From a virus (lineage: Duplodnaviria > Caudoviricetes), in the IMG/VR virus record IMGVR_UViG_3300030329_003406, positions 1 through 55,990 of that record: a stretch of DNA of 55,990 bases. One strand, given 5' to 3'. Every line of letters begins with the position of its first letter. Within the stretch, counting starts at the first letter, position 1. The position numbers were made by a program, and so were the translations under genes. The notes under the pieces were generated by a model. It saw nothing but the letters and a program-made list of their open reading frames with translations. It was not told the DNA's origin and did not search any database. This document shows positions 2,627 to 51,354 of this stretch, in pieces.

Positions 2627-5600
2627 TATTCACAAACCTTTCTTGATTTCTTAGGCTGCCTTATTTTGTATTTATCTTTACCAGTACCACCCTTCATAGT
2701 ACTAGTCTTCCAGTGCTCAAGTCCGTATCTATTAGCTTGAACTTCAATCCATGGACTATGGAAGCCTGGGCCAAGTAAATTTTTAATAAAAGACATATTC
2801 TCACCAAGCTTATTAAAATTATATTTATTAGTATACATCATTTGATGCCCTGATATAAAGTCATCTACATTTATATCACCACCATCAGCAACTCTTTGCC
2901 ATTCTTTAGCAAATTTATCTGCAATCTTATCTGTACCTTTTGTATTGTAGTAATACCGTAGCATTGTACGTACAAGGCGCTTATTCATGCCATAAAACGG
3001 TAGATCTATTCTCTCTGGACGTTTACCTTCACCTGGCATAGTAACGGTCTTATATCGACCAGTTAATGCAGTTGGTTTAACTATATGATGTAACAGAAAT
3101 TCATATGCATCTTGTTCACCGAGTCCTAATTCTGACAATCTTTCTAACCAACCTCTTCTTTTTCCATCTTTAGTACCATGGAAGAACTCTCTTATAATAG
3201 CTTCCTCTCTAGCTGACGATGCAGACCATTGAAGATTAGCCATATTTCTATCCTTCTGAGTTAAGCTCATAGTATCTCTATAGTTTGTGCTTAATTCCCC
3301 TTTAAGTATACCAACTGAATCTAAAAACTCAAGTCTTAAACTATAATCCCTAAATACAGCTTGTGCATCACCTACTGGGAATGTTAATTTCTGTAAGGCA
3401 TCAGCATACTTAGCTTCAGCAGTATTAACAGACTCTCTTATTGATGGATTCTTTGTCTCTATATAATAATACCCTTCATCCCTTTGATAACTTCTATCAG
3501 AAGATTTATAAGATTTAGGATCTACCCATCCAACTCTTTCAATTTTCTTCCAATCAATTGTACGATCTGCAGCATTAAAAAAGTCAGATCTTACCTTATA
3601 TACATAAACCTTACTTGATGGCTTTGTAGTTTTGGAGAATACCCCAGCAGCTTTCTGTTCAGGACTAAATGTAACAGGCCTTCTTACTCTTTGATTTTTA
3701 GTATCTTTTGCAACTAAGTTTTCATAGTATTGCTTATTAAATGAATCTAACGCTGAAGATATAGCATCTTTACGATCTCTCATCCTTGTAATTTTCTCTG
3801 GGTTAGTAAATCTTTCTTCAGCTAAATATCTTAATTGATTAGCTAAGTTATTATTCTCAACCTCTAATATATTATGCACTAATCCTCTGTTAACAGCGTT
3901 GTCATTATATACGTCTCTCTCAAATTTAACTAAGCTACCATAATTAAAGTCACCATCAGCAATATTCTCTCCAAACAATCTTAAGAATTCAACCCTATTA
4001 ACTATATCATCAACGGCTATACCAGCATTCCTGAAAAGCTTACCATCAGAATTTGTATAATCAGCATATTGAAAATCAGTATAAAACTTTCTATTAACCA
4101 TATCAACTAAACTATTAGCACCTAAATGCTCAGCTGCGCCAATCTTAAGCTTTTGAGTTATACTAGGTTCTTTTGATATATCATCCCTAAAGGCGAATCT
4201 TCTTCTGGTCTGTGGTAATCTCCAAGCTTTACCTGATCGTAACATTTTAATAAAATCTGCTCTTTGTGTTGGATGAGTAATAGCATCAACTTTGTAACCA
4301 TAAAAGAATCCCATCAATTCACTCAATCTCTGCTCTCTTAAAGCTGAATCTGTTATCCTTGAGTACTCTCTAACTAATTTAGAAACTAAAAATTGATCTG
4401 GGTTCGAAAGGAATAATCTTAAATCTTTAACTATAGCCCGTAATTCTGATGGCTCAGGAGGTCTTTTCCCAGCAGTATCATATGTTTCGTTAGTAATGGC
4501 ATTAGTTTTCTTTAATGTTCTAAGTACAATCCTTACAATATCCTTACCTACTGTCTGGTCAGTCCAATGTTGTAAATTTTTCTGCCCTTCATTTTTATCT
4601 GGATTCCATCCCTTTTTAAATACGTTTAACCTGGAAGCATTATGTGTTGTAGGATCCGCTATTTCTCCAGCAACAGCCCTCGAAGGTCTATCCCCTAAAA
4701 CTGAAAAATTAGTAATAGTATTTCTTCCATGCTTAGGATTCATAACCTCAGGTGTAGCTGTATGTACATCTACTCCAGTTTGGGCGGCATACAACATCCT
4801 TAATGCTATGCCAAATTCGTCGCCACCGACCTCTAAGTTTTTGATATTATTTAAATCAAAAATCTCTGTCTTATCTTTAGTATTATGAAACCCAAGTCTA
4901 GTTAAGAAAGATAGTGCACTTCTATTTCCTATATTGGCACCGATAGCTTTCTGCTTTTGATGGACTATAGCTCCATATTTAGAATGCCCTATTTCACCAT
5001 CAACCTCACCAGCAACAAATCTATTCTCATTTAAATTAAAGCCATACTGATTAGATTCATGCCCAGTCTTCATCTCTGCCTTGTATTGCCTAAAATCAAC
5101 TACCCTTCCATTCACTTGTACATCTTCAGATATAGCCCTAAGAGATTTATCTAAATAAACATAAAAGTGATCACCATCATAATCTCTTTGATGAATTATA
5201 CGAGTATCATAATCATTAATCTCTACTAATCCATTCTTATTTTCATTTAAAACTTTCCCAATTCTATGGAATGCTTTATCATAACCTTTAAGTGGTATGG
5301 CTATACCTGATGCCCCCATCTCAAGATTTAATTTATCAAGCTCTACCTTCTTAACACCTGATAGTTTAGATAAGACATATGTCTGCCCATTCTTAGTCAG
5401 TACACCATTCTTTATAAAGTTATGTACTTGCAATGCAGTAAGATTACGAATGGAGTTAATTGATTTTAATACCTTTGAAATTGTTGCTAATTTAGATTTA
5501 TCTGCTTTTGGTATTACAGCTCCAGTATCATCACCACGAACATTATATCCTGCATATTTATCATGCAATGGACTGGTTGTTCTAAAGTTTTTCCCATCAT

Positions 5601-8600
5601 AATTTATTATCACATCAATGCCAGAATCATTATATACGAATGAGTATTTAGATATATCTCTATGCTTAGTTCTATTCATCATATAATGTGATACACCTAT
5701 CTGACCATGCGTAGCGTTAATTCTATCAGTGATAATCTCAGATCCTCTTTCGTTTAAAGGTTTATCTTTGTATAATTTAGCACTTTGAACCTCAACTATA
5801 TTAGGCATAGATAAATCACCCTTTGAATTAGGTATTATGAATGCATCTTCCCCATTCTTTGTTGTAGGCCTTTTTATAAACTCAAAATCTTTGCTTCTAA
5901 TTAACCTGTCAACAGCTGTCTTTAATACAGGATTATCTATACTCATCCTAGATTGTACCATAGCTTTAGCTAAGCCCATAGAACCTTGTGTATATTGAAA
6001 CCCTTGGTCTTCTTTAAGTTGAAATAAATACTCAGCGATCTGTTGTTTAGCTCCAGAATGATCTCTATGGAAATTACTTAGTTTTTCAATAGTTGACTCT
6101 AAACCCTGCCAAGCCCTTAATTCTGCAATATAAGCAGAACTTTGAAGGTCTCCAGTTGAATTAGATATAGTAACACCATCAACTTTCTTACCTGTAAATC
6201 CTATTCCAACAGAAGAAAAGTCAATACTCATTATATTATCCTTTGATATGCTACCTAACTCAGCCATCCAATCACTACTATTCTTTGATATTTTGAGAGC
6301 TTGTATATCTTTACCTGAAAGAGATATGCCAGCCATAGATTTAGCTGCAGATTCTGGCACTAACATATGAACATTCTTAGGTATGTTGATAGCTGGATCA
6401 TAATACAAGAATCCCTTACCTAAGAGATTGTTACCAGCACCTACTGACATTATATAAGGCTTCATGCCATTAAAGTCTTCTATACGACCACCATTAGCTT
6501 CCCATAGATATTTAGCATATTCTTTGCTAATAGGTATACCTCCATCAACACTAGACGATTCGAGACTGTCAAACCTTCCTCTTTCCACATCAGCTCTATG
6601 TTGATTTAAAGATATCTTTTCAAACTCTGAGATATTAGGATCTTTAAGCTTATTATCTATAGCCCTAATAACTCTTTCTTTATTATAAAATGGATCATCA
6701 ACTCCACCCATTGCTTCGTCACGTAATGCTGCTATATTTAATGAATTAGGATCTTTTGCAAACCTTCTAGATAATGCTCTTACATCAGCATCAGCAGTTA
6801 TATCGCCAATATATCTGTTCATATCTTTATTAATAATATTACTTGTACCGCCATCAGCTATATACCCACGCTTATACATATTAGCTAATGTTTTCCTTAC
6901 ATCAATATTTGCTGCATTATCTTTAACCTGGTTAACCATCTTATCAAACTCACCACGCATTGTATGATCGCTATGCATTAATAGCATTTTAAGTTCTAAC
7001 GACCTAGATGAATCTCCCTTTTCCAGAACACCCTCAAACATCTCTTTAAATACATCGCCTAAAGATTTGTTCTTTTTATTATAATAAGATAGCTTTTTAT
7101 TATACCATGCTTCATAATCTTTATTAAGAAGATCTATATTCTTTTGAGAGCCAACAAATAATATTCTAGCCTTAGGAGATAGATTCATAAATGTTAAATA
7201 ATTTGTAGCAGCAGTGGTAACATCATTCCACATTTTAATATCTTTGGCAGTTACTGGCTCACCTGCTGCTAATCTTTCATTAACAAACTCTCTTAAGGCT
7301 CTAGGAGTCATAGTAGAATTATTAATTGCGTTCTGTATATATTTATAAACCCCCTCTGGAGTTACACCACTTGGACCTCCAACTATATCATTGATAGATA
7401 AAGTTCTATCTCTTCCTCCTTCTGTTACTACTAAAGTATTATCAAGAAAGAAGACATCGTATTTAAATTGATCTGCATCTGGTTGATGCTTCCTATTAAA
7501 GAAATCACTATTAGCATTCTTCCTCCCAGTAGCATCACCTACTTCTGTGTTGCCCTTTCTAAATGTCATAGTAGGTACAACCTCTGAATTAGTTAATCTT
7601 AATAGCATGAATTGAGAATCTTTGTCCACCCATTGATCAAAGAGTTCAGTTTTCTCTTTATTGCTTAAATCTTTTATTTCTAAAATCTTAGTCACTCCAT
7701 GATCCACAGCCTCATTAAGCTTACCTTGAGCAACTAAGTCAGCAAATGTCTCATCAACCTTATTAGGATCTTTAAGACTTAATAAATTATACCTCTTCGC
7801 AACTTCCAATGGATTCTTGGATGAACTATGCACAACAGATTGAACTTCTAATTCATTGTATATATTATTAAACTCTGCTGCGTGTGGATCTTTCTCTGCT
7901 CTAGCTTGGGCTATCCTTAAATTAATAGACTCTGCAAGATCCATAAATTTAGTCCAACTCCCAGATTCATTATATGCATTAACTAAATCTTCAAATGGAA
8001 CCTCTTTATCGCCTAGATTTTTAAGCTCTTTCATAAGCTCTTTAGTTAGAGTATTGTAATAATCTTCTGATTCCGATCTACTATATCCCTCTTTTCCAGC
8101 TCTAGTTTTATTTATCAGCTGATTAACTATCCCAATGAATGCATCCTCAGATAACTGGGTATTAGTAATTAATTTATTTATCACCTCATTTACGCTAGGT
8201 ATAGTCTCATCAGCTTTAAATTGCTCAATCCCCTCATCTGGAATTCTTTTCATTCTCTTCTCTATTATTTCCAATTGAGTTAATGCAGTATCAAAAAGCT
8301 CTTGATTTTTATCTCTCATTTCAGACTTCTCAGAGTCTTTATTCCTTGTGGAAAGTATTTCTACTTCATCTTTAATAGTTTTAATCGCTGCTTCATGGTC
8401 ATACCCAGACTTCCCGATATCTTCAGCTAGTCTACCTATATCTAATTGTAATTGGAAGAGTCTCTTATTTAATTTTGACCCCTCAAATTGTATATTTGCT
8501 AATGATTCTTTACCAAAGTTAACAAAATCTTGGAACGATCTATCCTTTAAAGTGCTATGTATACTAGCTATATCAGAAAGATCAAACTTTCTGAATGCAT

Positions 8601-11600
8601 CAGCTGCAGTATTCTCAATTATATAATCAGAAAACTCAATATGCTCTCTACCAATAGCTCTAATAATATTTGTATACATCTCCCCAGCTTTAAGTCTGTC
8701 GCCTTCAGAAGTCTCTGGGCCCAACATTCTCTCTAAGCCTTCCTCTGAAAACATTTTTATTTTACCTTCTTTAGTAATTTCTAGGTTCCATTTATCTCTT
8801 ATCTCTAATACAGTATTAAGTGATCGTCTATCATAGTTCCTAGTTTCCATTACTCTTTTTATAAAATAATCCTTAGCAACACCATCAAAGTTTGCTCTAA
8901 ATTCTACTGGCATTTGCAACCTAAATTTATCAAACTGTTCTGCTAATAACTTTGCATCTTTATAGCTTATCTCAGTTTTGCCTTGTATATTTCTAGATGG
9001 AGCTCCAGCTGTCCATTTCATTAATTCAAATAAAGGAGATAATGAATCTCTTACACTATCAGCACGGTCCCTTACTTCATTTGCTCCCATAGTTTCAAGC
9101 TCTTTATCTGTAAATTTTATCTCATAATCATTAATATTACGTCTATACCTACTGCCATTATCGTTAACTATAAATAATTGATCTGCTGAAATACCAATAG
9201 CTTCATCTGCTACACTTCCAATCTCTTCAGATGTTCTTCTAGTCATTATCTTAAACATCTTATCTAATGCTTCAGATGTCTTTCCAGCTTTAACAAGTTG
9301 CGTGTATGGGTTATTTAGAATATCAAAATTATAGTTACCTACTCCATGTTCTCTGTTTAGAACACCCTTAGTAGATTCTATTATCTCCTCAACGACTTTC
9401 TCTGTATCAGCATTAAATTTATATTTCCTTGTGCTAGCACCTGTTTCTATATAGCCTCTATCAGCAAAGAATTTTACAATATTATGCACATCAGATAAAT
9501 TACTAGCATTATCCCATGTAAAATCATCAATTCTTAATCTTCCATTATTTAATTCTTCAACTTTTAGCCCAGCAGAATCTCTGAACTGTAAAATCATATC
9601 TCTATATACCCTCCATACACCAGCAGCAGTATCTTGAGTTAATCTACTTTGAACACCACCAGCATGAAGGTCTTTAAGTGATGTTCCGTCTTCAAATTTT
9701 AATCCTTTAAGTTGACTTTCAAGCCATGTCAATCCTTCTTTACCTAAAAATCTAGCATCTCTAGGTGTGTATGAACCTTGTATACCAGGGTCCTGCATAG
9801 AAGTTTCCATCATTTTATTTATATCATTTAGCTCAGCAATTAATCTATGCGCTTTCATAGGATCATAATCTTTACTTGTACCAGTAAATGATTTCATATT
9901 AAATGCTTCGTTAAATAGTCTATGTATCTCAGCTCCTACTGGATGCGTATTGATAGAGCTACCAAACTTAGCACTAACATCATTAGCATTATACATTGGG
10001 ATAATATCTTTTAATCCATTACCACTTAATCCTAATAGGTGTAATGTCTCCATTTCTGGAGTAAAGTCAGCCATATACTGATTTAACTCTTGGCGTCCCC
10101 AATGACCTCTACTCTTAGTCATAGCGGCAGACATTAATAAATGTATACCTAATTCTTCTGGATTTAAATCATTAAATGCACCAGTAGAGAATAAACCATA
10201 GTTCATAACAGCTACACCAGCAGCCATACGACCAGAGGATGCCATAAAGTCATAAGCATACTTACCATACCATTCTTTGTTAAGCTTTCTAGCAGTTAAA
10301 TCCCTAACACTGTTCAGTAAAGAATGCACATGGTCCATAGGGACTTCACCTTTATCCATCTTCCTAATTATATCTTCTGCATTTTTATAAGTAGTTTTTC
10401 CTACCTTCCAATGTCTTTTAGCTAACTCTGATGAGTTTAATATATCGAATTTACCACCCTTAAGCATTATCTTTAACAATCCTTTAGTAGCATCTTCTCC
10501 AGCTTCTTCTGTAATTTTTGCATAATTAGACTTACCATAGGTTGCTTTTAATAATCTAACTTTCCTAGCAAGAGATTCGTTTCCACCTCCAGGGAATGCT
10601 CTTATAATAGGAAATGCTAATCCCATTAATAAAGAATGATTTGCTACATGCCCAGCTTCAGCTAAACCAAACTCTTCGCCTCTAGCATGAGCCATAACAG
10701 CTCCACTTATAAGACCATGAGCCCCCATCATCATAACGTCTTGAGATGCCATGCCTAAGTATTTACCTAATACATCTCTTAATGGCCCTGCAGATTCACC
10801 TGCAAACTTAGTAGCAACCCATTCACTTAATTCATTGATATGTTTACCGCTACCCATGTGCTCCATAAAATCGTCCGATATCCTGCTTAAATCGTCTGCA
10901 CCTATGTTCTTTATACCTACATCTTCAAAAGCCTTTTTAATGGCATGCTGTGAGCGTAGAGTAAGCATTTGTAGGCCTTCTCTTCTTTGATCTGCATTAC
11001 CCTTTAGGTTATATATCCATTTTAAACTACCATCATCTGTACCAGTTTTAATTAATCCAAGCTTAACTTTATTATCAAGCTCACTTAACACGGAACTAGT
11101 CTTCTTGCCAGTATTCTTAGCTATCTCAGCAGCAGCTTTAACAACAGCAATAGACTCTTTCTTGCCTTTAACATTGCTTACTGCTTTCCCAGCAGAAGCA
11201 GCACCTCTTTTTATAATACTTTCTACACCCTCTGTAGCTACCTTTCTAGTGACAAGGCTACCAGCCTTACCCATAGCAGCAAAAGGACCAACGATAGGAG
11301 CAAATAATCCAGCAGTTTCACCTATTATTCTCCCAGCTTGACCTAATCTAGATCGTTCTTGACCTTCTTCCATATCAGGTTCAAGATATTCTGTAGCTCC
11401 CCATGATATACCAGACGCAAGACCTAGTCCTGTCTGGCTAATAAAATCCCATGCACTACCCCAATTCTCATCTTTTGAGGCAGAGTCCATAACTTGATCA
11501 AATGTTGGTAGATTAGGAAGAGTAGGATTTACTCTTCTCTCTGTACGTTTGCGGTCTCTTTCGACTCTATTCTTATCTTCTTGTAATTTATCGAAATACC

Positions 11601-11616
11601 TAGTTGGTAAAGGCAT
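2626..11616 (-). CDS. Giant (2996 aa) virion protein containing a putative single-subunit double-psi beta-barrel RNA polymerase
   Basis: Motifs in correct order: VDGGIPISKEYAKYLW (~aa1690), GKGFLYYDP...VPESAAK (~aa1733) and HQRDYDGDHFYVY (D2145-D2149, nt 5170-5184). They resemble QDE-1/RdRP, YonO and crAss-type RNAP motifs. Confidence 0.75.
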   Translation of the reverse strand: MPLPTRYFDKLQEDKNRVERDRKRTERRVNPTLPNLPTFDQVMDSASKDENWGSAWDFISQTGLGLASGISWGATEYLEPDMEEGQERSRLGQAGRIIGETAGLFAPIVGPFAAMGKAGSLVTRKVATEGVESIIKRGAASAGKAVSNVKGKKESIAVVKAAAEIAKNTGKKTSSVLSELDNKVKLGLIKTGTDDGSLKWIYNLKGNADQRREGLQMLTLRSQHAIKKAFEDVGIKNIGADDLSRISDDFMEHMGSGKHINELSEWVATKFAGESAGPLRDVLGKYLGMASQDVMMMGAHGLISGAVMAHARGEEFGLAEAGHVANHSLLMGLAFPIIRAFPGGGNESLARKVRLLKATYGKSNYAKITEEAGEDATKGLLKIMLKGGKFDILNSSELAKRHWKVGKTTYKNAEDIIRKMDKGEVPMDHVHSLLNSVRDLTARKLNKEWYGKYAYDFMASSGRMAAGVAVMNYGLFSTGAFNDLNPEELGIHLLMSAAMTKSRGHWGRQELNQYMADFTPEMETLHLLGLSGNGLKDIIPMYNANDVSAKFGSSINTHPVGAEIHRLFNEAFNMKSFTGTSKDYDPMKAHRLIAELNDINKMMETSMQDPGIQGSYTPRDARFLGKEGLTWLESQLKGLKFEDGTSLKDLHAGGVQSRLTQDTAAGVWRVYRDMILQFRDSAGLKVEELNNGRLRIDDFTWDNASNLSDVHNIVKFFADRGYIETGASTRKYKFNADTEKVVEEIIESTKGVLNREHGVGNYNFDILNNPYTQLVKAGKTSEALDKMFKIMTRRTSEEIGSVADEAIGISADQLFIVNDNGSRYRRNINDYEIKFTDKELETMGANEVRDRADSVRDSLSPLFELMKWTAGAPSRNIQGKTEISYKDAKLLAEQFDKFRLQMPVEFRANFDGVAKDYFIKRVMETRNYDRRSLNTVLEIRDKWNLEITKEGKIKMFSEEGLERMLGPETSEGDRLKAGEMYTNIIRAIGREHIEFSDYIIENTAADAFRKFDLSDIASIHSTLKDRSFQDFVNFGKESLANIQFEGSKLNKRLFQLQLDIGRLAEDIGKSGYDHEAAIKTIKDEVEILSTRNKDSEKSEMRDKNQELFDTALTQLEIIEKRMKRIPDEGIEQFKADETIPSVNEVINKLITNTQLSEDAFIGIVNQLINKTRAGKEGYSRSESEDYYNTLTKELMKELKNLGDKEVPFEDLVNAYNESGSWTKFMDLAESINLRIAQARAEKDPHAAEFNNIYNELEVQSVVHSSSKNPLEVAKRYNLLSLKDPNKVDETFADLVAQGKLNEAVDHGVTKILEIKDLSNKEKTELFDQWVDKDSQFMLLRLTNSEVVPTMTFRKGNTEVGDATGRKNANSDFFNRKHQPDADQFKYDVFFLDNTLVVTEGGRDRTLSINDIVGGPSGVTPEGVYKYIQNAINNSTMTPRALREFVNERLAAGEPVTAKDIKMWNDVTTAATNYLTFMNLSPKARILFVGSQKNIDLLNKDYEAWYNKKLSYYNKKNKSLGDVFKEMFEGVLEKGDSSRSLELKMLLMHSDHTMRGEFDKMVNQVKDNAANIDVRKTLANMYKRGYIADGGTSNIINKDMNRYIGDITADADVRALSRRFAKDPNSLNIAALRDEAMGGVDDPFYNKERVIRAIDNKLKDPNISEFEKISLNQHRADVERGRFDSLESSSVDGGIPISKEYAKYLWEANGGRIEDFNGMKPYIMSVGAGNNLLGKGFLYYDPAINIPKNVHMLVPESAAKSMAGISLSGKDIQALKISKNSSDWMAELGSISKDNIMSIDFSSVGIGFTGKKVDGVTISNSTGDLQSSAYIAELRAWQGLESTIEKLSNFHRDHSGAKQQIAEYLFQLKEDQGFQYTQGSMGLAKAMVQSRMSIDNPVLKTAVDRLIRSKDFEFIKRPTTKNGEDAFIIPNSKGDLSMPNIVEVQSAKLYKDKPLNERGSEIITDRINATHGQIGVSHYMMNRTKHRDISKYSFVYNDSGIDVIINYDGKNFRTTSPLHDKYAGYNVRGDDTGAVIPKADKSKLATISKVLKSINSIRNLTALQVHNFIKNGVLTKNGQTYVLSKLSGVKKVELDKLNLEMGASGIAIPLKGYDKAFHRIGKVLNENKNGLVEINDYDTRIIHQRDYDGDHFYVYLDKSLRAISEDVQVNGRVVDFRQYKAEMKTGHESNQYGFNLNENRFVAGEVDGEIGHSKYGAIVHQKQKAIGANIGNRSALSFLTRLGFHNTKDKTEIFDLNNIKNLEVGGDEFGIALRMLYAAQTGVDVHTATPEVMNPKHGRNTITNFSVLGDRPSRAVAGEIADPTTHNASRLNVFKKGWNPDKNEGQKNLQHWTDQTVGKDIVRIVLRTLKKTNAITNETYDTAGKRPPEPSELRAIVKDLRLFLSNPDQFLVSKLVREYSRITDSALREQRLSELMGFFYGYKVDAITHPTQRADFIKMLRSGKAWRLPQTRRRFAFRDDISKEPSITQKLKIGAAEHLGANSLVDMVNRKFYTDFQYADYTNSDGKLFRNAGIAVDDIVNRVEFLRLFGENIADGDFNYGSLVKFERDVYNDNAVNRGLVHNILEVENNNLANQLRYLAEERFTNPEKITRMRDRKDAISSALDSFNKQYYENLVAKDTKNQRVRRPVTFSPEQKAAGVFSKTTKPSSKVYVYKVRSDFFNAADRTIDWKKIERVGWVDPKSYKSSDRSYQRDEGYYYIETKNPSIRESVNTAEAKYADALQKLTFPVGDAQAVFRDYSLRLEFLDSVGILKGELSTNYRDTMSLTQKDRNMANLQWSASSAREEAIIREFFHGTKDGKRRGWLERLSELGLGEQDAYEFLLHHIVKPTALTGRYKTVTMPGEGKRPERIDLPFYGMNKRLVRTMLRYYYNTKGTDKIADKFAKEWQRVADGGDINVDDFISGHQMMYTNKYNFNKLGENMSFIKNLLGPGFHSPWIEVQANRYGLEHWKTSTMKGGTGKDKYKIRQPKKSRKVCE

Positions 11617-45302: not shown

Positions 45303-45980
45303 ATGGCATATAGTTTAGAATATCAAAGAGAATGGCAAAGGAATAACAAAGATAAGATGAAAAAATACAAAGATAAATATAGATCATCTGAGAAAGGAAA
45401 GACTACAACTAAAGCTTATACAAAGAAATATACAGAAAGCGGAAGAAGAGCCAAGATGCAAGCTATAAGAATGGCTAATCCTGATTATAGAGCTAAGGCA
45501 AGTAAATGGCATAAAGAAAACTCTAAAAGACCTGAAGTAATAAAAAGAAGAAGAGAATTACATTATATATGGTCAAAGAATAATCCTAATTATATGATGA
45601 AGAGAAGAATTAAAGCTTGTTTTAAAAATGCTATAAATATTTATACTGAAAAAGGCAAAACTTTATCTTCAAGAGATTATGGGCTAGATTACTCTAAATG
45701 TATTGATAAATTAACCAAAGATGCTAAAGAAATGGGTTGCACTCTTAAAGAGATAAAAGACATGGATTATCATATAGATCATATAATACCTATGTCTATC
45801 TATGATTTAGAAGATAGAAATGAGATTAAAAAATGTTGCAATCCAGCAAATATGAGATGGCTTAATTCTATTGAAAACATAGTTAAAGGTAACAATTTAA
45901 GACCTGAAGATATAAAGGTTATAGAAACTCTTCCAAAGAGTATATATCCTAAACAATGGGGCGGAATAATACCAAGTTAA
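45303..45980 (+). CDS. HNH (homing-type) endonuclease
   Basis: YHIDHIIP...NPANMRWL..IENIVKGN; basic helical N-terminus. Confidence 0.8.
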   Translation: MAYSLEYQREWQRNNKDKMKKYKDKYRSSEKGKTTTKAYTKKYTESGRRAKMQAIRMANPDYRAKASKWHKENSKRPEVIKRRRELHYIWSKNNPNYMMKRRIKACFKNAINIYTEKGKTLSSRDYGLDYSKCIDKLTKDAKEMGCTLKEIKDMDYHIDHIIPMSIYDLEDRNEIKKCCNPANMRWLNSIENIVKGNNLRPEDIKVIETLPKSIYPKQWGGIIPS

Positions 45981-46028
45981 ACTAATAGGGAGATAAAAAT
46001 GATTTAAATATAATAAGATACTAACAAA

Positions 46029-46256
46029 CTTCCCTAGCATACGGAAGGGCAACGCTTAAGATGTGCACAGGCTGCGTCATATAGTATGCTAAGAATTAGA
46101 GAGAGTTACGGCTAAAACCACCATCTCGTTAAATAAGTCGATGAAGCATGATAGTGATGGCCGCAGGTGTCATTAATGTTCATAGCGGGTGAGCAGCTAA
46201 ACACTGCATACGCAAGCGTGGTCTCTCTCTGAAATTATGCTGAGATTAATATCTCA
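46029..46256 (+). ncRNA. Putative structured ncRNA(s): a three-way junction plus a large multibranch element
   Basis: TAGCATAC/GTATGCTA; AGAGAGAGTTACG/CGTGGTCTCTCTCT enclosing three helices; TGAGAT/ATCTCA. Confidence 0.5.
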
Positions 46257-46332
46257 CTAGTAATAAATATGAAGTTATTGGAGAAAACAACAAATAAATA
46301 TAATAAAACACAACAAAACAGGGAGATAATAG

Positions 46333-46503
46333 ATGCAACTAGATGAAACAATATTGCAGACCAGGACTGTCACTACTATAGTTGATATCCTGAAGAAGAT
46401 CGTGGATGATATGAACCCACTGATCAGAGAGACACAAGATGTCTATGAAATTATCAAAGAACATGATAAAGCTAAAGCAAAGGTAAAATTTCAATATGAG
46501 TGA
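46333..46503 (+). CDS. Small hypothetical protein (56 aa)
   Basis: GGGAGATAA RBS; MQLDETILQTRTV... Confidence 0.6.
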   Translation: MQLDETILQTRTVTTIVDILKKIVDDMNPLIRETQDVYEIIKEHDKAKAKVKFQYE

Positions 46504-46741
46504 TGCGGCTTATGTCGTGTTCATCTCCCTAAAGGAGGAGGGGAAGGTAGTCGACCATCCCCTTTGTCCTTGCTCAACGGAGATAGAGGCGAGAGCATAC
46601 CGTGACGGTTACGTGGATGCTATAGTCAATCATACAGGAAAAGCCAACCGAGCCGAAGTATATGGACAGTTTAGTATACGAAAAGTTGGTGAAGAATTAG
46701 CTAATAATAACAAAAAAGAAGAAGGGAGTAAGAATGCCTGA
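46496..46741 (+). CDS. Hypothetical protein coupled to the Ubl gene
   Basis: Overlaps both neighbours by 8 nt. Confidence 0.6.
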   Translation: MSDAAYVVFISLKEEGKVVDHPLCPCSTEIEARAYRDGYVDAIVNHTGKANRAEVYGQFSIRKVGEELANNNKKEEGSKNA

Positions 46742-46937
46742 CATAAAAATACTAGAAGGTGGCGGCTTTGTAGACCATAGTGTAACATCAACAACAGTAG
46801 GTGGATTAAGAACTGAGAAGAGTATACCTCAGGGCTCATCTATATCTGTTGGTGGTAGAACTGTAGGTGATGATCATGCTTTAACAGATGGTGATCTAGT
46901 AGCTGCAGTACATAATGATAAAACTGGTGGAAAATAG
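46734..46937 (+). CDS. Ubiquitin-like (ThiS/MoaD beta-grasp) protein with C-terminal GG-K
   Basis: TTVGGLR, ISVGG and LTDGDLV MoaD-like motifs; ends DKTGGK; GGGAG RBS; near E2, JAB and E1 genes. Confidence 0.8.
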   Translation: MPDIKILEGGGFVDHSVTSTTVGGLRTEKSIPQGSSISVGGRTVGDDHALTDGDLVAAVHNDKTGGK

Positions 46938-46965
46938 AATGGCTAACCACGCAAGGTGAATTCTA

Positions 46966-47058
46966 GAGGGACTAATTGATTATTTGGGGGATGCTGAATG
47001 AGAAGGCAGTATCAGATTAGGCTTTTACGTGACTAAAGCTATAATTAATTAGTTCCTC
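46966..47058 (+). ncRNA. Three-way-junction RNA element with an 18-bp closing stem
   Basis: GAGGGACTAATTGATTAT/ATAATTAATTAGTTCCTC; inner GATGCTG/CAGTATC and GGCTTT/AAAGCT. Confidence 0.55.
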
Positions 47059-47082
47059 CCATCATAAACATAAGGAGATAAT

Positions 47083-47328
47083 ATGGCAAGATTAACAAAT
47101 TTAGATGCATTAAAGAGTGATCTCAATGCTTTAGTAGTAAAGATATTGACTTTAGGTAAAGCGGAAGAGAATGCAGGGAAATATGAGTATTATAAAGAGA
47201 AATTAAACATTGCAAGCGCATTAGAAGATATAATAAAGAAACATTTTAATAATACGGTATTCGGTGAAATGACTAATGAAGAAGCTAGAGATATAGCTGT
47301 TAATGGCTATAAACATAAAAAATGTTAG
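47083..47328 (+). CDS. Hypothetical helical protein
   Basis: AGGAGATAA RBS. Confidence 0.65.
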   Translation: MARLTNLDALKSDLNALVVKILTLGKAEENAGKYEYYKEKLNIASALEDIIKKHFNNTVFGEMTNEEARDIAVNGYKHKKC

Positions 47329-47510
47329 TGCCAGATAAAAATGGATATTTATGTCCAGAATGTGGAGAAGATTATCTTGAAGAAGGTGAAGCTGGTAATC
47401 TAGGCACAGGCCCTGATGGTATTCCTATAATGTGGTGTCCAACCTGTGAACTTATGTTAGATGAGCATGATTTTATGGATTATTATGAACCAGGGAGGGA
47501 TGATGAGTGA
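47322..47510 (+). CDS. Acidic zinc-ribbon protein
   Basis: CPEC...CPTC. Confidence 0.65.
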   Translation: MLVPDKNGYLCPECGEDYLEEGEAGNLGTGPDGIPIMWCPTCELMLDEHDFMDYYEPGRDDE

Positions 47511-47736
47511 ATATGTATCAGTATTAGATGGACATAACTTAAGATTTTGTAAAAAATGTAGTTCAGTATGGGAAGGACCATGGAAGAGGTTATATGGCCT
47601 AACTATCATAAAATACAGCAACTTAAGTTCATATAAGTTAAAAAGAGAACGTTGTTTAGAATGTGAAAGGGAGATAAATGGAACAAAAACTAACGCATGT
47701 ATCGGAGGCAAGAGATTGGTCACCAAATATTACTAA
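47503..47736 (+). CDS. Basic zinc-finger protein (start revised)
   Basis: CKKC...CLEC; GGAGG RBS before ATG 47500/47503. Confidence 0.6.
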   Translation: MSEYVSVLDGHNLRFCKKCSSVWEGPWKRLYGLTIIKYSNLSSYKLKRERCLECEREINGTKTNACIGGKRLVTKYY

Positions 47737-49108
47737 TCTAAATGAGCAGTTGTTATTAGGGCCTCAAAGAGAAATACTGGAATTAATTCAAGAAATTAAT
47801 AGAAGGTGGACTTTAGACCTAAATGCAACTAAAACATATAGATGGGGACCAGGATATATGGATAAAATAAAGAGATGGTATCGTGATCACTATGTTGAAG
47901 AGCATATGAAGAGAAAAATATCAACATTCTTTAATAAAGTAGCCGAAAAACACTGGTCAGTTAAGGAATTAGAGAAGAAATTAAGAGTTGTTGATGAGAA
48001 AATGGCCTCTAGACGTAGAAATGGTGCAGTTTTCCAAGATAATAGTGGTTTATTGGAAGAAAAACTAGAAATATTATCAAATAGAGTGGAATCTCAGTTG
48101 AGTGAAGCTAATAAACAGTTTAATTCTTCAGGAATACATATAAATGCAAGTTTATATCGCTATCAAAATACTAATAGGTATGATGCTGCAATTAAAGATG
48201 AATATGTAATACAGGTTTCTCTTCCACCAGGTAAAATGAACTTATTTGTGGGAGATACACCATATCAAATAGAGATAGGAGGCTCAATAATATGGTTTAG
48301 GCTTGACTTAATGAAACTTATATATACAATTTGCAATGAAAACTCAAGAATAGTTAATGATAATACATTTAAACTTAATTATACACCTTATGCTGAAACA
48401 GGTAGTAAGATTATAGCTCATTATTTTCCTGAATGGGAAGAAAATAGTGAAGGTAAAGAGTTGAAACATCCATATATAAGCGGTAGAAATGCATGGAATC
48501 AATTGAGAATTAATGATGAACTTATTGGATCACATGTATGTTTAGGTGAATTAACTGGTCATGTAGATAGACAAATGAAGAAATTAGACTTAGTTTCTCT
48601 ATGTGCAACACTAATGTTATGGAATTCTACGTTCCATATAGGTAGAACGCACCCATTAAACCAAATAAAGAAGGTATTTTGGGGTATTTCACCTGAAAAT
48701 AACACAGATGAGTTCAAAAATGCTGTAAATATGGTGAGTGCTGGTGATTGTGAGCATAATAATTGGGACGATCGATCTAATATAGACACCATGTATTGCG
48801 ATGAAACACAATGTGTATTTAGAGATAGTTGTACTACTTATAGAGTAGGCATGGATGTAGATCAAGAAGAACCTCAAGAAGAGCCTAGTGTTGGTGGCGT
48901 AATAGAGGTATTGCAGGCTATGGAAGAAGATTCTAGGGAAATTAATGCTCAAAGAACAGAAATAGAAGAAAGAATGAGACAAGAGAACCCTAATGGTCAA
49001 ATCGATGTAGATGAAGTGGCTAGATGGATTGAATTAGAAACACCTGAAGAACGGGTAATAAGATGGGCTGCCGAAAACGGTGGTGCAATTAACATAGGAG
49101 AAAGATAA
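47678..49108 (+). CDS. Prokaryotic E2 (ubiquitin-conjugating)-like protein with N-terminal coiled coil and Cys-rich C-terminal segment
   Basis: KHPYISG (H264)...HVCLG (C288) matches the E2 HPx...CLG pattern; translationally coupled to JAB. Confidence 0.65.
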   Translation: MEQKLTHVSEARDWSPNITNLNEQLLLGPQREILELIQEINRRWTLDLNATKTYRWGPGYMDKIKRWYRDHYVEEHMKRKISTFFNKVAEKHWSVKELEKKLRVVDEKMASRRRNGAVFQDNSGLLEEKLEILSNRVESQLSEANKQFNSSGIHINASLYRYQNTNRYDAAIKDEYVIQVSLPPGKMNLFVGDTPYQIEIGGSIIWFRLDLMKLIYTICNENSRIVNDNTFKLNYTPYAETGSKIIAHYFPEWEENSEGKELKHPYISGRNAWNQLRINDELIGSHVCLGELTGHVDRQMKKLDLVSLCATLMLWNSTFHIGRTHPLNQIKKVFWGISPENNTDEFKNAVNMVSAGDCEHNNWDDRSNIDTMYCDETQCVFRDSCTTYRVGMDVDQEEPQEEPSVGGVIEVLQAMEEDSREINAQRTEIEERMRQENPNGQIDVDEVARWIELETPEERVIRWAAENGGAINIGER

Positions 49109-49962
49109 TGGAATCAGAGTTTTATATAGAAGGTAAGGCCTGGGATAAAGTGATAAACTATGCACGATCTGCTTATGGTCAGTTTAAAGCTGAAATAGGT
49201 GGAATGATGGTAGTTGTTAAAGATCAGGATGGTGATTGGGAGTTAAAAGATCCAGTGATCATGAAACAAGAAGTGACTGCAGGTAATACTCATTTAGATA
49301 AAGATGAACTTGCTAAATATTATACTAAAGCAGCGATGAAATATGCCAAAGAAGAATTTAGATTCTGTTGGTGGCATTCTCATCATACAATGGGAGCTTT
49401 CTGGAGTGGTACTGACACTAATACTATAGATGAGTTTAGTGATGGAGACTTTAGCTTTGCTTTAGTAGTTAATCTTAAGGAAGAATATAAGTTTAGAGTA
49501 TCTGTATGGAAACCTATAGAGGCACATGAAGATGTTGAGCTTAATATACTTACTAAAGAAAAGAAAGTTCCAAAGAAAATAGAAGATGAGGTAAAAGAAA
49601 TGTGTCAAGCTGGAAATACAGCATGGAGGCATAAGTCCCTTAATAACAATTACTTACGTCCACAAGAAACACTATTTAATTTACCTTATGAACAAAATGA
49701 AGTGCCGTATGCACAGGTATATAAACTAATAGATAGACTACATAGAAATCTTATAGCTGGTGAAGTTACTTATGGTGATTACTATAGAAAGATACAAGAT
49801 GAAAATGAACGTCTAAAGACAGAAAATCTTGGCATGCGAATAAAGGTACTTAAAGAAGAAGAGTTAGCTAATGAATTATTATTCTCTACTCCTACAGATT
49901 TCATAGAAGAAGAAATAATAGATGATGAGTTAACCGATTGGAATAGGGGCTTCTTATGTTAA
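49108..49962 (+). CDS. JAB/MPN+ (JAMM) metallopeptidase
   Basis: E29 (KAEIGG) and WWHSHHTMGAFWSGTD (H90, H92, S100, D103). Confidence 0.88.
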   Translation: MESEFYIEGKAWDKVINYARSAYGQFKAEIGGMMVVVKDQDGDWELKDPVIMKQEVTAGNTHLDKDELAKYYTKAAMKYAKEEFRFCWWHSHHTMGAFWSGTDTNTIDEFSDGDFSFALVVNLKEEYKFRVSVWKPIEAHEDVELNILTKEKKVPKKIEDEVKEMCQAGNTAWRHKSLNNNYLRPQETLFNLPYEQNEVPYAQVYKLIDRLHRNLIAGEVTYGDYYRKIQDENERLKTENLGMRIKVLKEEELANELLFSTPTDFIEEEIIDDELTDWNRGFLC

Positions 49963-50624
49963 ATGCAAGGTATTCTGGAATAGTAGATAATGCTAACCAG
50001 TTTGTCTTTCATATCTTGGGCTGTGGAGCTATTGGTAGTTCTGCAGCCACCCAGATATGCAGGATGGGCGGTGAGAAGTTCTATCTATATGATTATGATC
50101 AAGTAGAGAGCGTTAATATAGGCGTGTCTCAATACAATCATGATGATATAGGTAAAAATAAAGTAGATGCTTTAAAAGAACATCTATTAAGTATCAATCC
50201 TAATATAAAAGTAGAGGTAGAACATGCTTTATTTGAGCATTATTCATACCAAGGTGAGAATGATATAGCTATATTAGGGTTTGATAGTATGAAATCAAGA
50301 TTAGATGCAGTAGAAGCGCTTTGTAGATTCAAGAATGCTAAGCCTAAATATATTATTGACGGTCGTATGGGAGCTGAACATTATCAGCAATATATAATAG
50401 ATAAGCCGACAGTCGCTAAATATACAAAATGTTGGTATTCTGATGAGACAGGAAGCACAGAACCTTGTAATGCAAAAGCTACAAGTTACTGCTCTAATAT
50501 GAGTGGCTCATTTATAGCTAACTCAGTTAGAAAGCTGATCATGAACCAGCCATATAATAGAGAGTTCTCGTTTAACTTCCCAATTATGTTGTTGGAAAAA
50601 ACAAAAATGATTAGTAAATTATAG
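49956..50624 (+). CDS. E1-like ThiF/MoeB adenylating enzyme
   Basis: GCGAIG, DYDQVESVN, GKNKV, GFDSMKSR and IDGRMG; candidate catalytic C171 (EPCNAK). Confidence 0.92.
   Translation: MLNARYSGIVDNANQFVFHILGCGAIGSSAATQICRMGGEKFYLYDYDQVESVNIGVSQYNHDDIGKNKVDALKEHLLSINPNIKVEVEHALFEHYSYQGENDIAILGFDSMKSRLDAVEALCRFKNAKPKYIIDGRMGAEHYQQYIIDKPTVAKYTKCWYSDETGSTEPCNAKATSYCSNMSGSFIANSVRKLIMNQPYNREFSFNFPIMLLEKTKMISKL
50592..50620 (+). promoter_or_regulatory. Sigma70-like promoter of the recombination/replication operon
   Basis: TTGGAA-N17-TAAATT. Confidence 0.5.
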
Positions 50625-50628
50625 GTAC

Positions 50629-50826
50629 AAGAGGTTGATATAAATCAATAACTGATCCTCCTGGAACAACAGTGATATTAAATGTAATCGCGGCTTATAG
50701 GTATGGGCATTCCCTACTAATACATTTAGCGAACCTGAGTGTAGCGCATTTAATATATAAATCTGGCGGCGAAAGGGTAATAAGTCCTGTATGGCAAGGA
50801 AAATGTGAGATTTATTTCTGCCTCTT
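50629..50826 (+). ncRNA. ~200-nt multibranched RNA leader
   Basis: AAGAGGT/GCCTCTT closes TTGAT/ATCAA, ACTG/CAGT, ATATTAAATGT/GCATTTAATAT and ATAAATCT/AGATTTAT. Confidence 0.55.
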
Positions 50827-50850
50827 TCCTATCTAATAAAAGGAGTAACA

Positions 50851-51354
50851 ATGGAAGAAAATACAACACCTGAAGTTCAGGTGAAGGAAACTTCGTCCCC
50901 TCAAGATAATGTATGGAAATCAGATACTATAGGTAAGCTATCAGCTGCGCTATCTAAAGCTCAAGGTGAAATGAAAGGTGCTGCTAGTAAGAGTACCAAT
51001 CCTTTCTTTAATAGCTCGTATGCTGACTTACACACAGTAATAGAATCATCTGTACCATATCTATCTAAGCATGGGATATCGGTAATACAAGGAACTGAAT
51101 TTGATATGGTTTGTGGATACTTTGTAACTACAAGGTTAATGCATGAATCAGGCGAATGGGTTCAAACAAGAGTAAGATGCCCTCTCGGTGGCAAGAAGGA
51201 TATACAGGCTGTGGGTAGTGCAATAACTTACGGGAGAAGATACGGCTTATCAGCTATGGCTGGTATAGCACAACATGATGATGATGGGAACTCAAATACA
51301 AATAGAAGTTTGAGCAAACAACATCAACAACAAATGCAAAAACAAGGAGCTTAA
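50851..51354 (+). CDS. erf: ERF-family single-strand annealing protein
   Basis: NPFFNSSYADL, LMHESGEW and GSAITYGRRYGLSAMAGI. Confidence 0.9.
   Translation: MEENTTPEVQVKETSSPQDNVWKSDTIGKLSAALSKAQGEMKGAASKSTNPFFNSSYADLHTVIESSVPYLSKHGISVIQGTEFDMVCGYFVTTRLMHESGEWVQTRVRCPLGGKKDIQAVGSAITYGRRYGLSAMAGIAQHDDDGNSNTNRSLSKQHQQQMQKQGA

Follow-up and report, generated by a model that had tools for sequence, protein, structure and literature searches.

The IMG/VR virus record IMGVR_UViG_3300030329_003406 (Duplodnaviria; Caudoviricetes), a 55,990 bp sequence analysed over its full length and referred to here as the window, includes a cassette of genes for a small ubiquitin-like protein (Ubl), an E2-like protein, a JAB/JAMM metallopeptidase and a ThiF-type E1 adenylating enzyme. 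The Ubl ends with a Gly-Gly pair followed by a single Lys residue. In the reading that best accounts for the data, the Ubl is a precursor (pro-Ubl) capped by K67, and the JAB peptidase of the cassette would trim this cap and so free G66 for the E1. Drawing on modelling and on analogy with known systems as well as on conservation, we put the probability of this reading at roughly 0.7. It is favoured by the conservation of the GG pair, the freely varying tails that follow it, the composition of the cassette, the JAMM motif of the peptidase and a predicted complex between the peptidase and the Ubl.

Conservation of the GG pair and variation in the residues beyond it

The C-terminus given in a preliminary description made from the sequence alone, D-K-T-G65-G66-K67-stop, was confirmed by the open reading frame (ORF) at 46734..46937 on the plus strand (Table 1). 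Bases 46917..46937 read gat aaa act ggt gga aaa tag, corresponding to D62, K63, T64, G65, G66, K67 and the stop codon, and the scissile bond is predicted to be G66|K67. The same description had proposed that homologues be checked for conservation of GG and for retention of residues after it, and three sets of sequences bear on these points. The close set consisted of the window Ubl and 44 homologues (70–93% identity in the alignment). The distant set came from a profile search of 1.84 billion representatives that returned 91 matches, of which 88 were kept when giant proteins were set aside. The phage-locus set was made up of 80 loci found through the JAB protein, together with the window; 57 Ubl ORFs were detected in it, and as these loci were sampled via the JAB alignment they are not independent of JAB.

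The GG pair was present in 44 of the 45 close homologues, the remaining one (P0028) ending in a single G. The motif K/E-x-G-G/A was found in 75/88 distant representatives and in all 57 of the phage-locus Ubl ORFs. Of the 13 distant representatives lacking the motif under the pattern used, most seem to be truncated or frameshifted and a few were simply missed by the pattern. G65 was invariant and G66 at least 90% conserved in both Ubl alignments.

Residues beyond GG, 1–9 in number, were found in 33 of the 45 close homologues, with tails of 0 (11 sequences), 1 (7), 2 (1), 3 (6), 7 (2) or 9 residues (17). The GG-K ending of the window Ubl is shared within this set, occurring in five of the 45 including the window. 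A tail follows the motif in 56 of the 75 distant representatives, where lengths of 0 (19), 1 (14), 2 (6) and 3 residues (8) were recorded and the longest reached 128 residues. Extra residues (1–60) were also present in 55 of the 57 phage-locus ORFs, and the other two (L047 and L078) end at GG. On both points, therefore, the homologues bore out what had been proposed. The residue directly after GG is most often Lys (11/56 tails in the wider family). At the nucleotide level, identity among five loci continues through the GG codons and collapses directly after them.

The possibility that the cap represents only neutral read-through was considered and rejected. Tails of three residues or fewer were found in 47 of the 75 representatives, compared with an expected 25% (p about 7e-12, using a stop-trinucleotide frequency of 0.069 and representatives that are not fully independent). 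As the tails are shorter than the neutral expectation, they appear to be kept short, with no requirement for a length of zero.

One tail recurs. The hydrophobic 9-residue sequence L-C/Y-L-T-P-L-L-N-K/R/G follows GG in 17/45 close homologues (P0007–P0038), and loci with a Ubl at L002:5995-6225 and L003:6001-6228 are listed beside them. Related tails, I-Y-L-A-P-L-L and I-I-H-L-A-P-L-L, were seen in other homologues. Unlike the short polar caps, the 9-residue hydrophobic tail looks conserved at the protein level.

In a further group, the Ubl and its GG are fused to 60–128 additional residues (P0104, P0108, P0131, P0066 and P0077, as well as L013:674-1111 and L040:2575-2952). Three of these representatives (P0104, P0108 and P0131) carry a helix-turn-helix (HTH)-like domain after GG, which matched Pfam HTH_psq or HTH_23 above the cut-off in P0108 and P0131 but not in P0104, while P0066 has a DUF7303 match in the same place. 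The arrangement resembles that of ubiquitin-fusion precursors, although frameshift or gene-merging errors in metagenome contigs may have produced some such ORFs. Tails of 60–128 residues, including those with a fused HTH domain, would need an endopeptidase that recognizes Ubl-GG, rather than a carboxypeptidase.

The JAB peptidase and the other components of the cassette

The preliminary description had placed the peptidase gene adjacent to the Ubl gene. This was wrong, as three small ORFs and the gene for the 476-aa E2-like protein come between the two, placing the peptidase gene 2.2 kb further downstream, on the same strand. The numbering of H90 and H92 was correct, and these residues form the HxH of a conserved JAMM motif. 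In the motif E...HxHx7Sx2D, H90, H92, S100 and D103 were invariant among 38 sequences and E29 was at least 90% conserved. The window JAB scored 24.4 bits against Pfam Prok-JAB, where the cut-off is 25, but a PF14464 match is precomputed for many of its homologues, and PADLOC JAB models matched the window protein at about 5e-5. The best PDB match was an Rpn11-like ('N11-like') protein (6fjv, E 0.002), which we take to be CsRpn11, and the JAMM motif was aligned in this match.

When residues 1–175 of JAB were modelled together with the Ubl, the predicted complex had an interaction score (ipSAE) of 0.67, with 0.65–0.71 obtained over three runs, while the best of three controls reached 0.01. The runs share at least 98% of their contacts, and the predicted local distance difference test score (pLDDT) of the partner was at least 88. 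The predicted interface places Ubl residues 55–67 against E29, H90, H92, S100 and D103 of JAB. When this score was calibrated, 58 of 80 solved complexes passed the threshold, as did 2 of 110 mismatched pairs; these rates are only approximate here, since own alignments served as input.

The arrangement of the genes was followed in 47 loci with at least 3.5 kb of sequence upstream of JAB. Genes for the Ubl and the E2-like protein were both present in all 47, and the order Ubl, E2-like, JAB was found in 46. All four genes were present in 42 loci. In the remaining five, the sequence after JAB yielded no such E1 ORF; three of them (L050, L078 and L080) were examined, and there the contig stops just past JAB. 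In the window, the JAB gene shares 1 nt with the E2-like gene and 7 nt with the E1 gene, and these overlaps make it probable that the three are co-translated. The cap had been offered as independent support for the four genes forming one system. That they form one system is strongly supported by the synteny in 47/47 loci, whereas the cap alone is weak evidence for it.

Relatives of the window JAB were found in 269 IMG/VR stretches. In data holding one genome per species (185,579 species) there were only five, all on short contigs from metagenome-assembled genomes (MAGs). The only cellular-genome match with substantial identity (42% to JAB residues 2–253) was in L087, a 3,859-bp contig of a MAG titled uncultured Nisaea sp. 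Given that this MAG contig is very short, phage DNA swept into the bin is the probable explanation, and as a clue to the host the match is weak at best.

The 222-aa E1 was recognized by Pfam ThiF (73.1 bits, cut-off 28.1). Across 64 sequences the invariant residues were those of G22-x-G24-x-x-G27 along with R5, D46, K69, D110, C171 and C179, and possibly C171 or C179 is the thioester Cys, though these are candidates from conservation. With its 222 aa, the protein is too short to hold a large Cys domain as an insertion. The nearest NCBIfam models were those for short ThiF proteins, all far below their cut-offs, and the nearest PDB chains were MccB, UBA5, PaaA and MoeB. PADLOC E1-E2 models matched the Rossmann part only (best 8.3e-16), and the NCBIfam model '6A-MBL cap2_3' matched at 1.5e-12, far below its cut-off.

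The E2-like protein matched nothing in Pfam, PHROG, PADLOC or NCBIfam. In its AlphaFold2 model (pLDDT 70), the VIA-align comparison gave 24 rows with Z of at least 5, of which 13 were E2 enzymes or E2 fusions (Z 5.0–5.9, rmsd 3.5–4.2); these Z values are middling, and a Z below 8 can reflect a common arrangement. The E2 rows aligned 123–135 residues, covering about residues 124–341 of the model, and the other rows covered the N-terminal helices only. The same model matched only unnamed viral proteins in BFVD, and an Atlas lead to Prok-E2_D (score 0.83) is to be taken as a lead only. P265 and C288 were conserved in 54/54 sequences, and H264 was at least 90% conserved in 13 sequences. H264-P265 and C288 recall the HPx...Cys signature of E2 enzymes and are candidates for the positions of the E2 HPN...C motif. 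A Cys cluster further along, with C358 and C379 in 53/54, C385 in 49/54 and C374 in 44/54 sequences, may bind zinc, although the model has low confidence in this region. A C-terminal helix of the T-P-E-E-R-x-I-x-W-A type (residues 455–476 in the window protein), also in a low-confidence region of the model, is conserved in part of the family. The idea that the tail of the E2-like protein (...NGG-AINIGER) holds a further site for processing or conjugation was rejected, as GG[AS][ILV] was found in only 4/54 E2-like proteins.

Taken together, the components suggest the following route. A minimal, 67-aa modifier of the ThiS/MoaD type would be made as a pro-form, and the JAMM peptidase would bind its putative beta-grasp body, thread the tail into the zinc site and cut at G66|K67, freeing the carboxylate of G66. 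The predicted complex, together with precedent, is the ground for inferring cleavage by JAB in this scheme. The E1 would adenylate G66 only after trimming, and the Ubl would then be passed, possibly via C171 or C179 of the E1, to C288 of the E2-like protein and from there to a target. The thioester relay and the conjugation to proteins are likewise steps that we infer. The same JAB would probably also reverse conjugates.

Alternatives to the proposed cap removal by the JAB peptidase

Several findings weigh against this reading. The window Ubl had no family match in Pfam, PHROG, PADLOC or NCBIfam, and its AlphaFold2 model, made for the Ubl alone from a shallow alignment, reached a pLDDT of only 55, with a strand-strand-short helix-strands topology. 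As noted above, the structural case for an E2 is a middling one, and no PDB chain reached E<=0.001 when the E2-like model was searched with Foldseek (the UEV domain of TSG101 appeared at E 0.43). Because solved JAMM-ubiquitin complexes exist, the score of the predicted JAB-Ubl complex may partly reflect likeness to them. A single Lys could be removed by a host carboxypeptidase. An E1 of ThiF size, best matched by ThiF, MccB and UBA5 and not by a Bil E1, also fits a role other than protein conjugation. Finally, 19 of the 75 distant representatives and two of the 57 loci (L047 and L078) have a Ubl that already ends at GG and yet keep JAB, indicating that maturation is neither the sole nor a universal role of this peptidase.

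The last of these points also limits what had been claimed for the cap. A maturation step described as obligatory holds for the allele of the window phage but not for the family, where those 19 representatives end exactly at GG or GA. The suggestion that the cap acts as a timing switch found no support: the cap sequence is not conserved, a quarter of the representatives have no cap, JAB, the E2-like protein and the E1 are probably co-translated, and a scan of 46000..51000 for promoters and terminators found no excess over shuffled sequences (19 compared with 21.4, and 4 compared with 2.1, respectively).

Peptidases of the JAMM type remove the residues after GG of a ThiS-like protein ahead of a ThiF-type E1 in the QbsE/QbsD and CysO/Mec+ systems. 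Such clusters are not known to include an E2-like protein, and their products act in small-molecule biosynthesis. The window Ubl might likewise be a carrier of sulfur or of another acyl-adenylate, in the style of ThiS, MoaD, QbsE or CysO, and not a protein modifier, with the E1 adenylating G66 towards a thiocarboxylate and JAB only uncapping or recycling the carrier. Among 64 members of the Ubl family, 27 matched Pfam ThiS weakly (best 2.3e-5), though not the window protein, and eight matched Pfam ThiS-like. The Ubl family profile gave MoaD (E 0.1) and SAMP2 as its top PDB rows, none of them significant, and the short E1, nearest to short ThiF models and without an obvious inserted Cys domain, also fits a carrier. 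Clusters of JAB, ThiS/MoaD and E1 genes linked to sulfur are described in the part of Iyer et al. 2006 (PMC1779556) cited here. Against this, all 47 synteny loci encode an E2-like protein with an HP motif and an invariant Cys, the scan of window proteins turned up no rhodanese, cysteine desulfurase or sulfur-assimilation gene, and tails of up to 128 aa and HTH fusions are not typical of sulfur carriers. We consider a carrier role unlikely. It would in any case still need removal of the cap, so that this element of the preliminary description would survive while the analogy to Bil-type processing would be wrong.

A second alternative, to which we give an equally low likelihood, is that a host peptidase removes K67, or that K67 is functionally irrelevant, and that JAB is solely a deconjugase, acting on the conjugates of its own system or, as a counter-defence deubiquitinase (DUB), on those of host defences of the Bil or CBASS (cyclic oligonucleotide-based antiphage signalling system) type. 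The retention of JAB in L047 and L078 and the distant representatives that need no trimming are in keeping with this, as are the one-residue cap, which is within the reach of a carboxypeptidase, and the nearest defence-system relatives, which are the PADLOC JAB and Cap2-type E1 models. However, 55/57 loci have tails and several of these are too long for a carboxypeptidase, and JAB and the Ubl occur together in all 47 synteny loci. The predicted complex sets the tail of this very Ubl in the active site of JAB, with a score far above the best control. One enzyme does both jobs in Bil, as described in the sections of two preprints drawn on here (bioRxiv 10.1101/2023.09.26.559546 and 10.1101/2023.09.04.556158). 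That the end of the ORF is an assembly or gene-calling artefact, or that so small an ORF is not a real gene, is very improbable; the ORF is short, has no family match of its own and has one homologue (P0028) ending in a single G, but its N-terminus and core are conserved in 44 homologues from many contigs, 91 profile matches were found, it always takes the same place in the cassette, a Shine-Dalgarno site precedes it, and four other cluster representatives also end in GG-K.

Genome setting, related systems and significance

The record is that of a marine phage, a whole IMG/VR virus rated complete, with a G+C content of 35%. The cassette lies outside the structural genes, in the plus-strand early/replication arm and beside the genes for the ERF recombinase and the primase-helicase (Table 1). 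When the Ubl, E2-like, JAB and portal proteins were searched with tblastn against 50,697 deposited phage records there were zero matches; related contigs of about 48–57 kb are nevertheless frequent in IMG/VR marine samples. In the structural arm, a 2,996-aa ORF (2626..11616, minus strand) and the neighbouring ORFs of 1,475, 755 and 636 aa had no PHROG match at E<=1e-5. A basic protein of 225 aa, encoded at 45303..45980 on the plus strand, gave sub-threshold matches only, to HNH_5, HNH_4 and a pPIWI-associated nuclease.

Additional small ORFs are found around the Ubl gene in the window, whereas in most other loci the Ubl gene directly precedes the E2-like gene. The 81-aa ORF immediately upstream of the Ubl gene occupies this position in ten loci of the window's clade, the window included, and may be a fifth component of the cassette. 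Two ORFs encode small zinc-ribbon proteins with a CxxC...CxxC pattern; a jackhmmer search found the second in 12 loci, in ten of which it lies directly upstream of the E2-like gene. Both could be adaptors or E3-like factors.

Table 1. Positions of the cassette genes, their key residues and surrounding features in the window
Feature	Position	Strand	Description
Ubl gene	46734..46937	+	67 aa, ThiS/MoaD-like, ends ...NDKTGG-K-stop; read from the ORF
Ribosome-binding site of the Ubl gene	46724..46728	+	GGGAG, Shine-Dalgarno sequence 5 nt before the ATG; read from the sequence
G65-G66 codons	46926..46931	+	from the sequence
Cap residue K67	46932..46934	+	from the sequence
Ubl stop codon	46935..46937	+	from the sequence
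81-aa ORF	46496..46741	+	clade-specific accessory; overlaps the Ubl start by 8 nt; no family match
Small CxxC...CxxC zinc-ribbon ORF	47322..47510	+	between the Ubl and E2-like genes
Small CxxC...CxxC zinc-ribbon ORF	47461..47736	+	clade-specific accessory; overlaps the E2-like start
E2-like protein	47678..49108	+	476 aa; N-terminal helical part, UBC-like core at ~125-340, Cys cluster, variable acidic tail
JAB/JAMM metallopeptidase	49108..49962	+	284 aa; predicted maturase and deconjugase
JAB catalytic residue E29	49192..49194	+	from the motif
JAB catalytic residues H90, H92, S100, D103	49375..49416	+	from the motif
ThiF-type E1	49956..50624	+	222 aa; matches Pfam ThiF
Structural genes	~2.6 to 42.5 kb	-	terminase, portal, major head protein, tail spike, 2,996-aa ORF
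Early/replication arm	from ~43 kb	+	small early genes, Ubl cassette, ERF recombinase, primase-helicase

By mechanism, the closest known system would be BilABCD. According to the portions of Chambers et al. (bioRxiv 10.1101/2023.09.26.559546) and Hör et al. (bioRxiv 10.1101/2023.09.04.556158) cited here, Ala98 of the E. aridi BilA follows the reactive Gly97 and blocks adenylation until BilC cleaves, and twelve BilA homologues have overhangs of 2–9 aa past the conserved Gly. Both systems also consist of four separate genes, and these follow the order given there for the Collimonas Bil system (Ubl, E2, JAB DUB and E1). However, Bil is a bacterial anti-phage defence while the phage cassette is found in the early/replication arm of a viral genome, and the phage proteins differ in that the Ubl is a single ThiS-like domain of 66 aa, the E1 has 222 aa and is ThiF-like, and the 476-aa E2-like protein has extra domains. 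No Bil-named match was found among the PADLOC matches listed (PADLOC 2.0.0, which may not hold Bil models), and the PDB chains that passed the search thresholds included none either. Membership of the cassette in Bil is not supported, given the lack of a Bil sequence match, the viral locus and the ThiF-sized E1, and the cassette cannot serve as an anti-phage defence in the way that Bil does.

Other systems share single features with the cassette. The ubiquitin operon of Caldiarchaeum subterraneum has a JAMM/Rpn11-type peptidase, CsRpn11, which in the part of Fuchs et al. 2018 (PMC6043591) cited here both processes the ubiquitin precursor and deubiquitinates. Similarity to the phage JAB is marginal (the 6fjv match at E 0.002), and unlike the phage cassette this operon is cellular, encodes true ubiquitin and a RING E3, and has a link to the proteasome. 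Type II CBASS Cap2 and Cap3 supply the nearest defence-library models (PADLOC) for the E1 and JAB. In contrast to CBASS, the phage E1 and E2-like proteins are encoded by separate ORFs and not as an E2-E1 fusion, and a dedicated Ubl, not a CD-NTase, would be conjugated; no CD-NTase or effector was found among the window proteins scanned.

In the Bub (6E/DUF6527) system, as in the phage cassette, a JAB-type peptidase would free the Ubl from a precursor, and BubCD is described as cleaving the BubAB precursor and releasing a functional Ubl in the sections of Ye et al. 2024 (PMC11601596) drawn on here. The same sections describe intermediates that are oxyesters (Ser) and a fusion of peptidase and E1 without a catalytic Cys, whereas the Cys of the phage E2-like protein is invariant (54/54) and JAB and the E1 are products of separate genes. 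Another phage-encoded Ubl of the ThiS/MoaD type is TAPI of lambdoid and T1 phages, in which a C-terminal Gly is also followed by further sequence, and the JAB domain of TAPK (JAB-NlpC/P60) was predicted to cleave at the conserved Gly, according to the portion of Iyer, Burroughs and Aravind 2006 (PMC1779556) cited here. Unlike the cassette described here, TAPI and TAPK are encoded in the tail gene cluster without an E1 or E2 and do not form a conjugation system.

A literature search found no paper on a phage-borne Ubl-E2-JAB-E1 cassette; the tables of Bil homologues held in supplements were outside the scope of this search. The cap is real and the trimming reading is sound, but the mechanism is unremarkable. 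Trimming of such caps is routine for ubiquitin, SUMO, NEDD8 and Atg8, and it occurs in BilA as well. The interest lies instead in the phage-borne cassette, as an entire system of this type is unusual in a phage, in Ubl and E2-like proteins that are novel in sequence, and in the natural range of caps and fusions. In practical terms, the cap means that reconstitution should use the 66-aa form of the Ubl or include JAB.

A wider proposal is that hundreds of uncultured marine phage genomes encode a complete ubiquitination-like cascade (pro-Ubl, E2-like protein, JAB and ThiF-type E1) that is encoded in the early/replication arm and tags host or phage proteins during infection. Almost all copies would be made with a C-terminal cap that can be removed, and cleavage by JAB would serve as a built-in licensing step, which may also release a second functional protein. 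We hold this more tentatively than cap removal itself and rate it at somewhat less than an even chance. If the cassette is a functional conjugation system, it would give mechanistic work a Ubl and an E1 that are both very small, the specificity of JAB could be probed with naturally occurring caps and fusions, and the offensive use of Ubl tagging by phages could be tested. The prokaryotic ubiquitination-like pathways covered by the three reports cited here (10.1101/2023.09.26.559546, 10.1101/2023.09.04.556158 and PMC11601596) are type II CBASS, Bil and Bub; all are bacterial, and those that have been characterized act against phages. A viral cascade, if real, would mirror these bacterial defences, and its Ubl-HTH and other Ubl-domain fusions would resemble the ubiquitin-fusion genes of eukaryotes.

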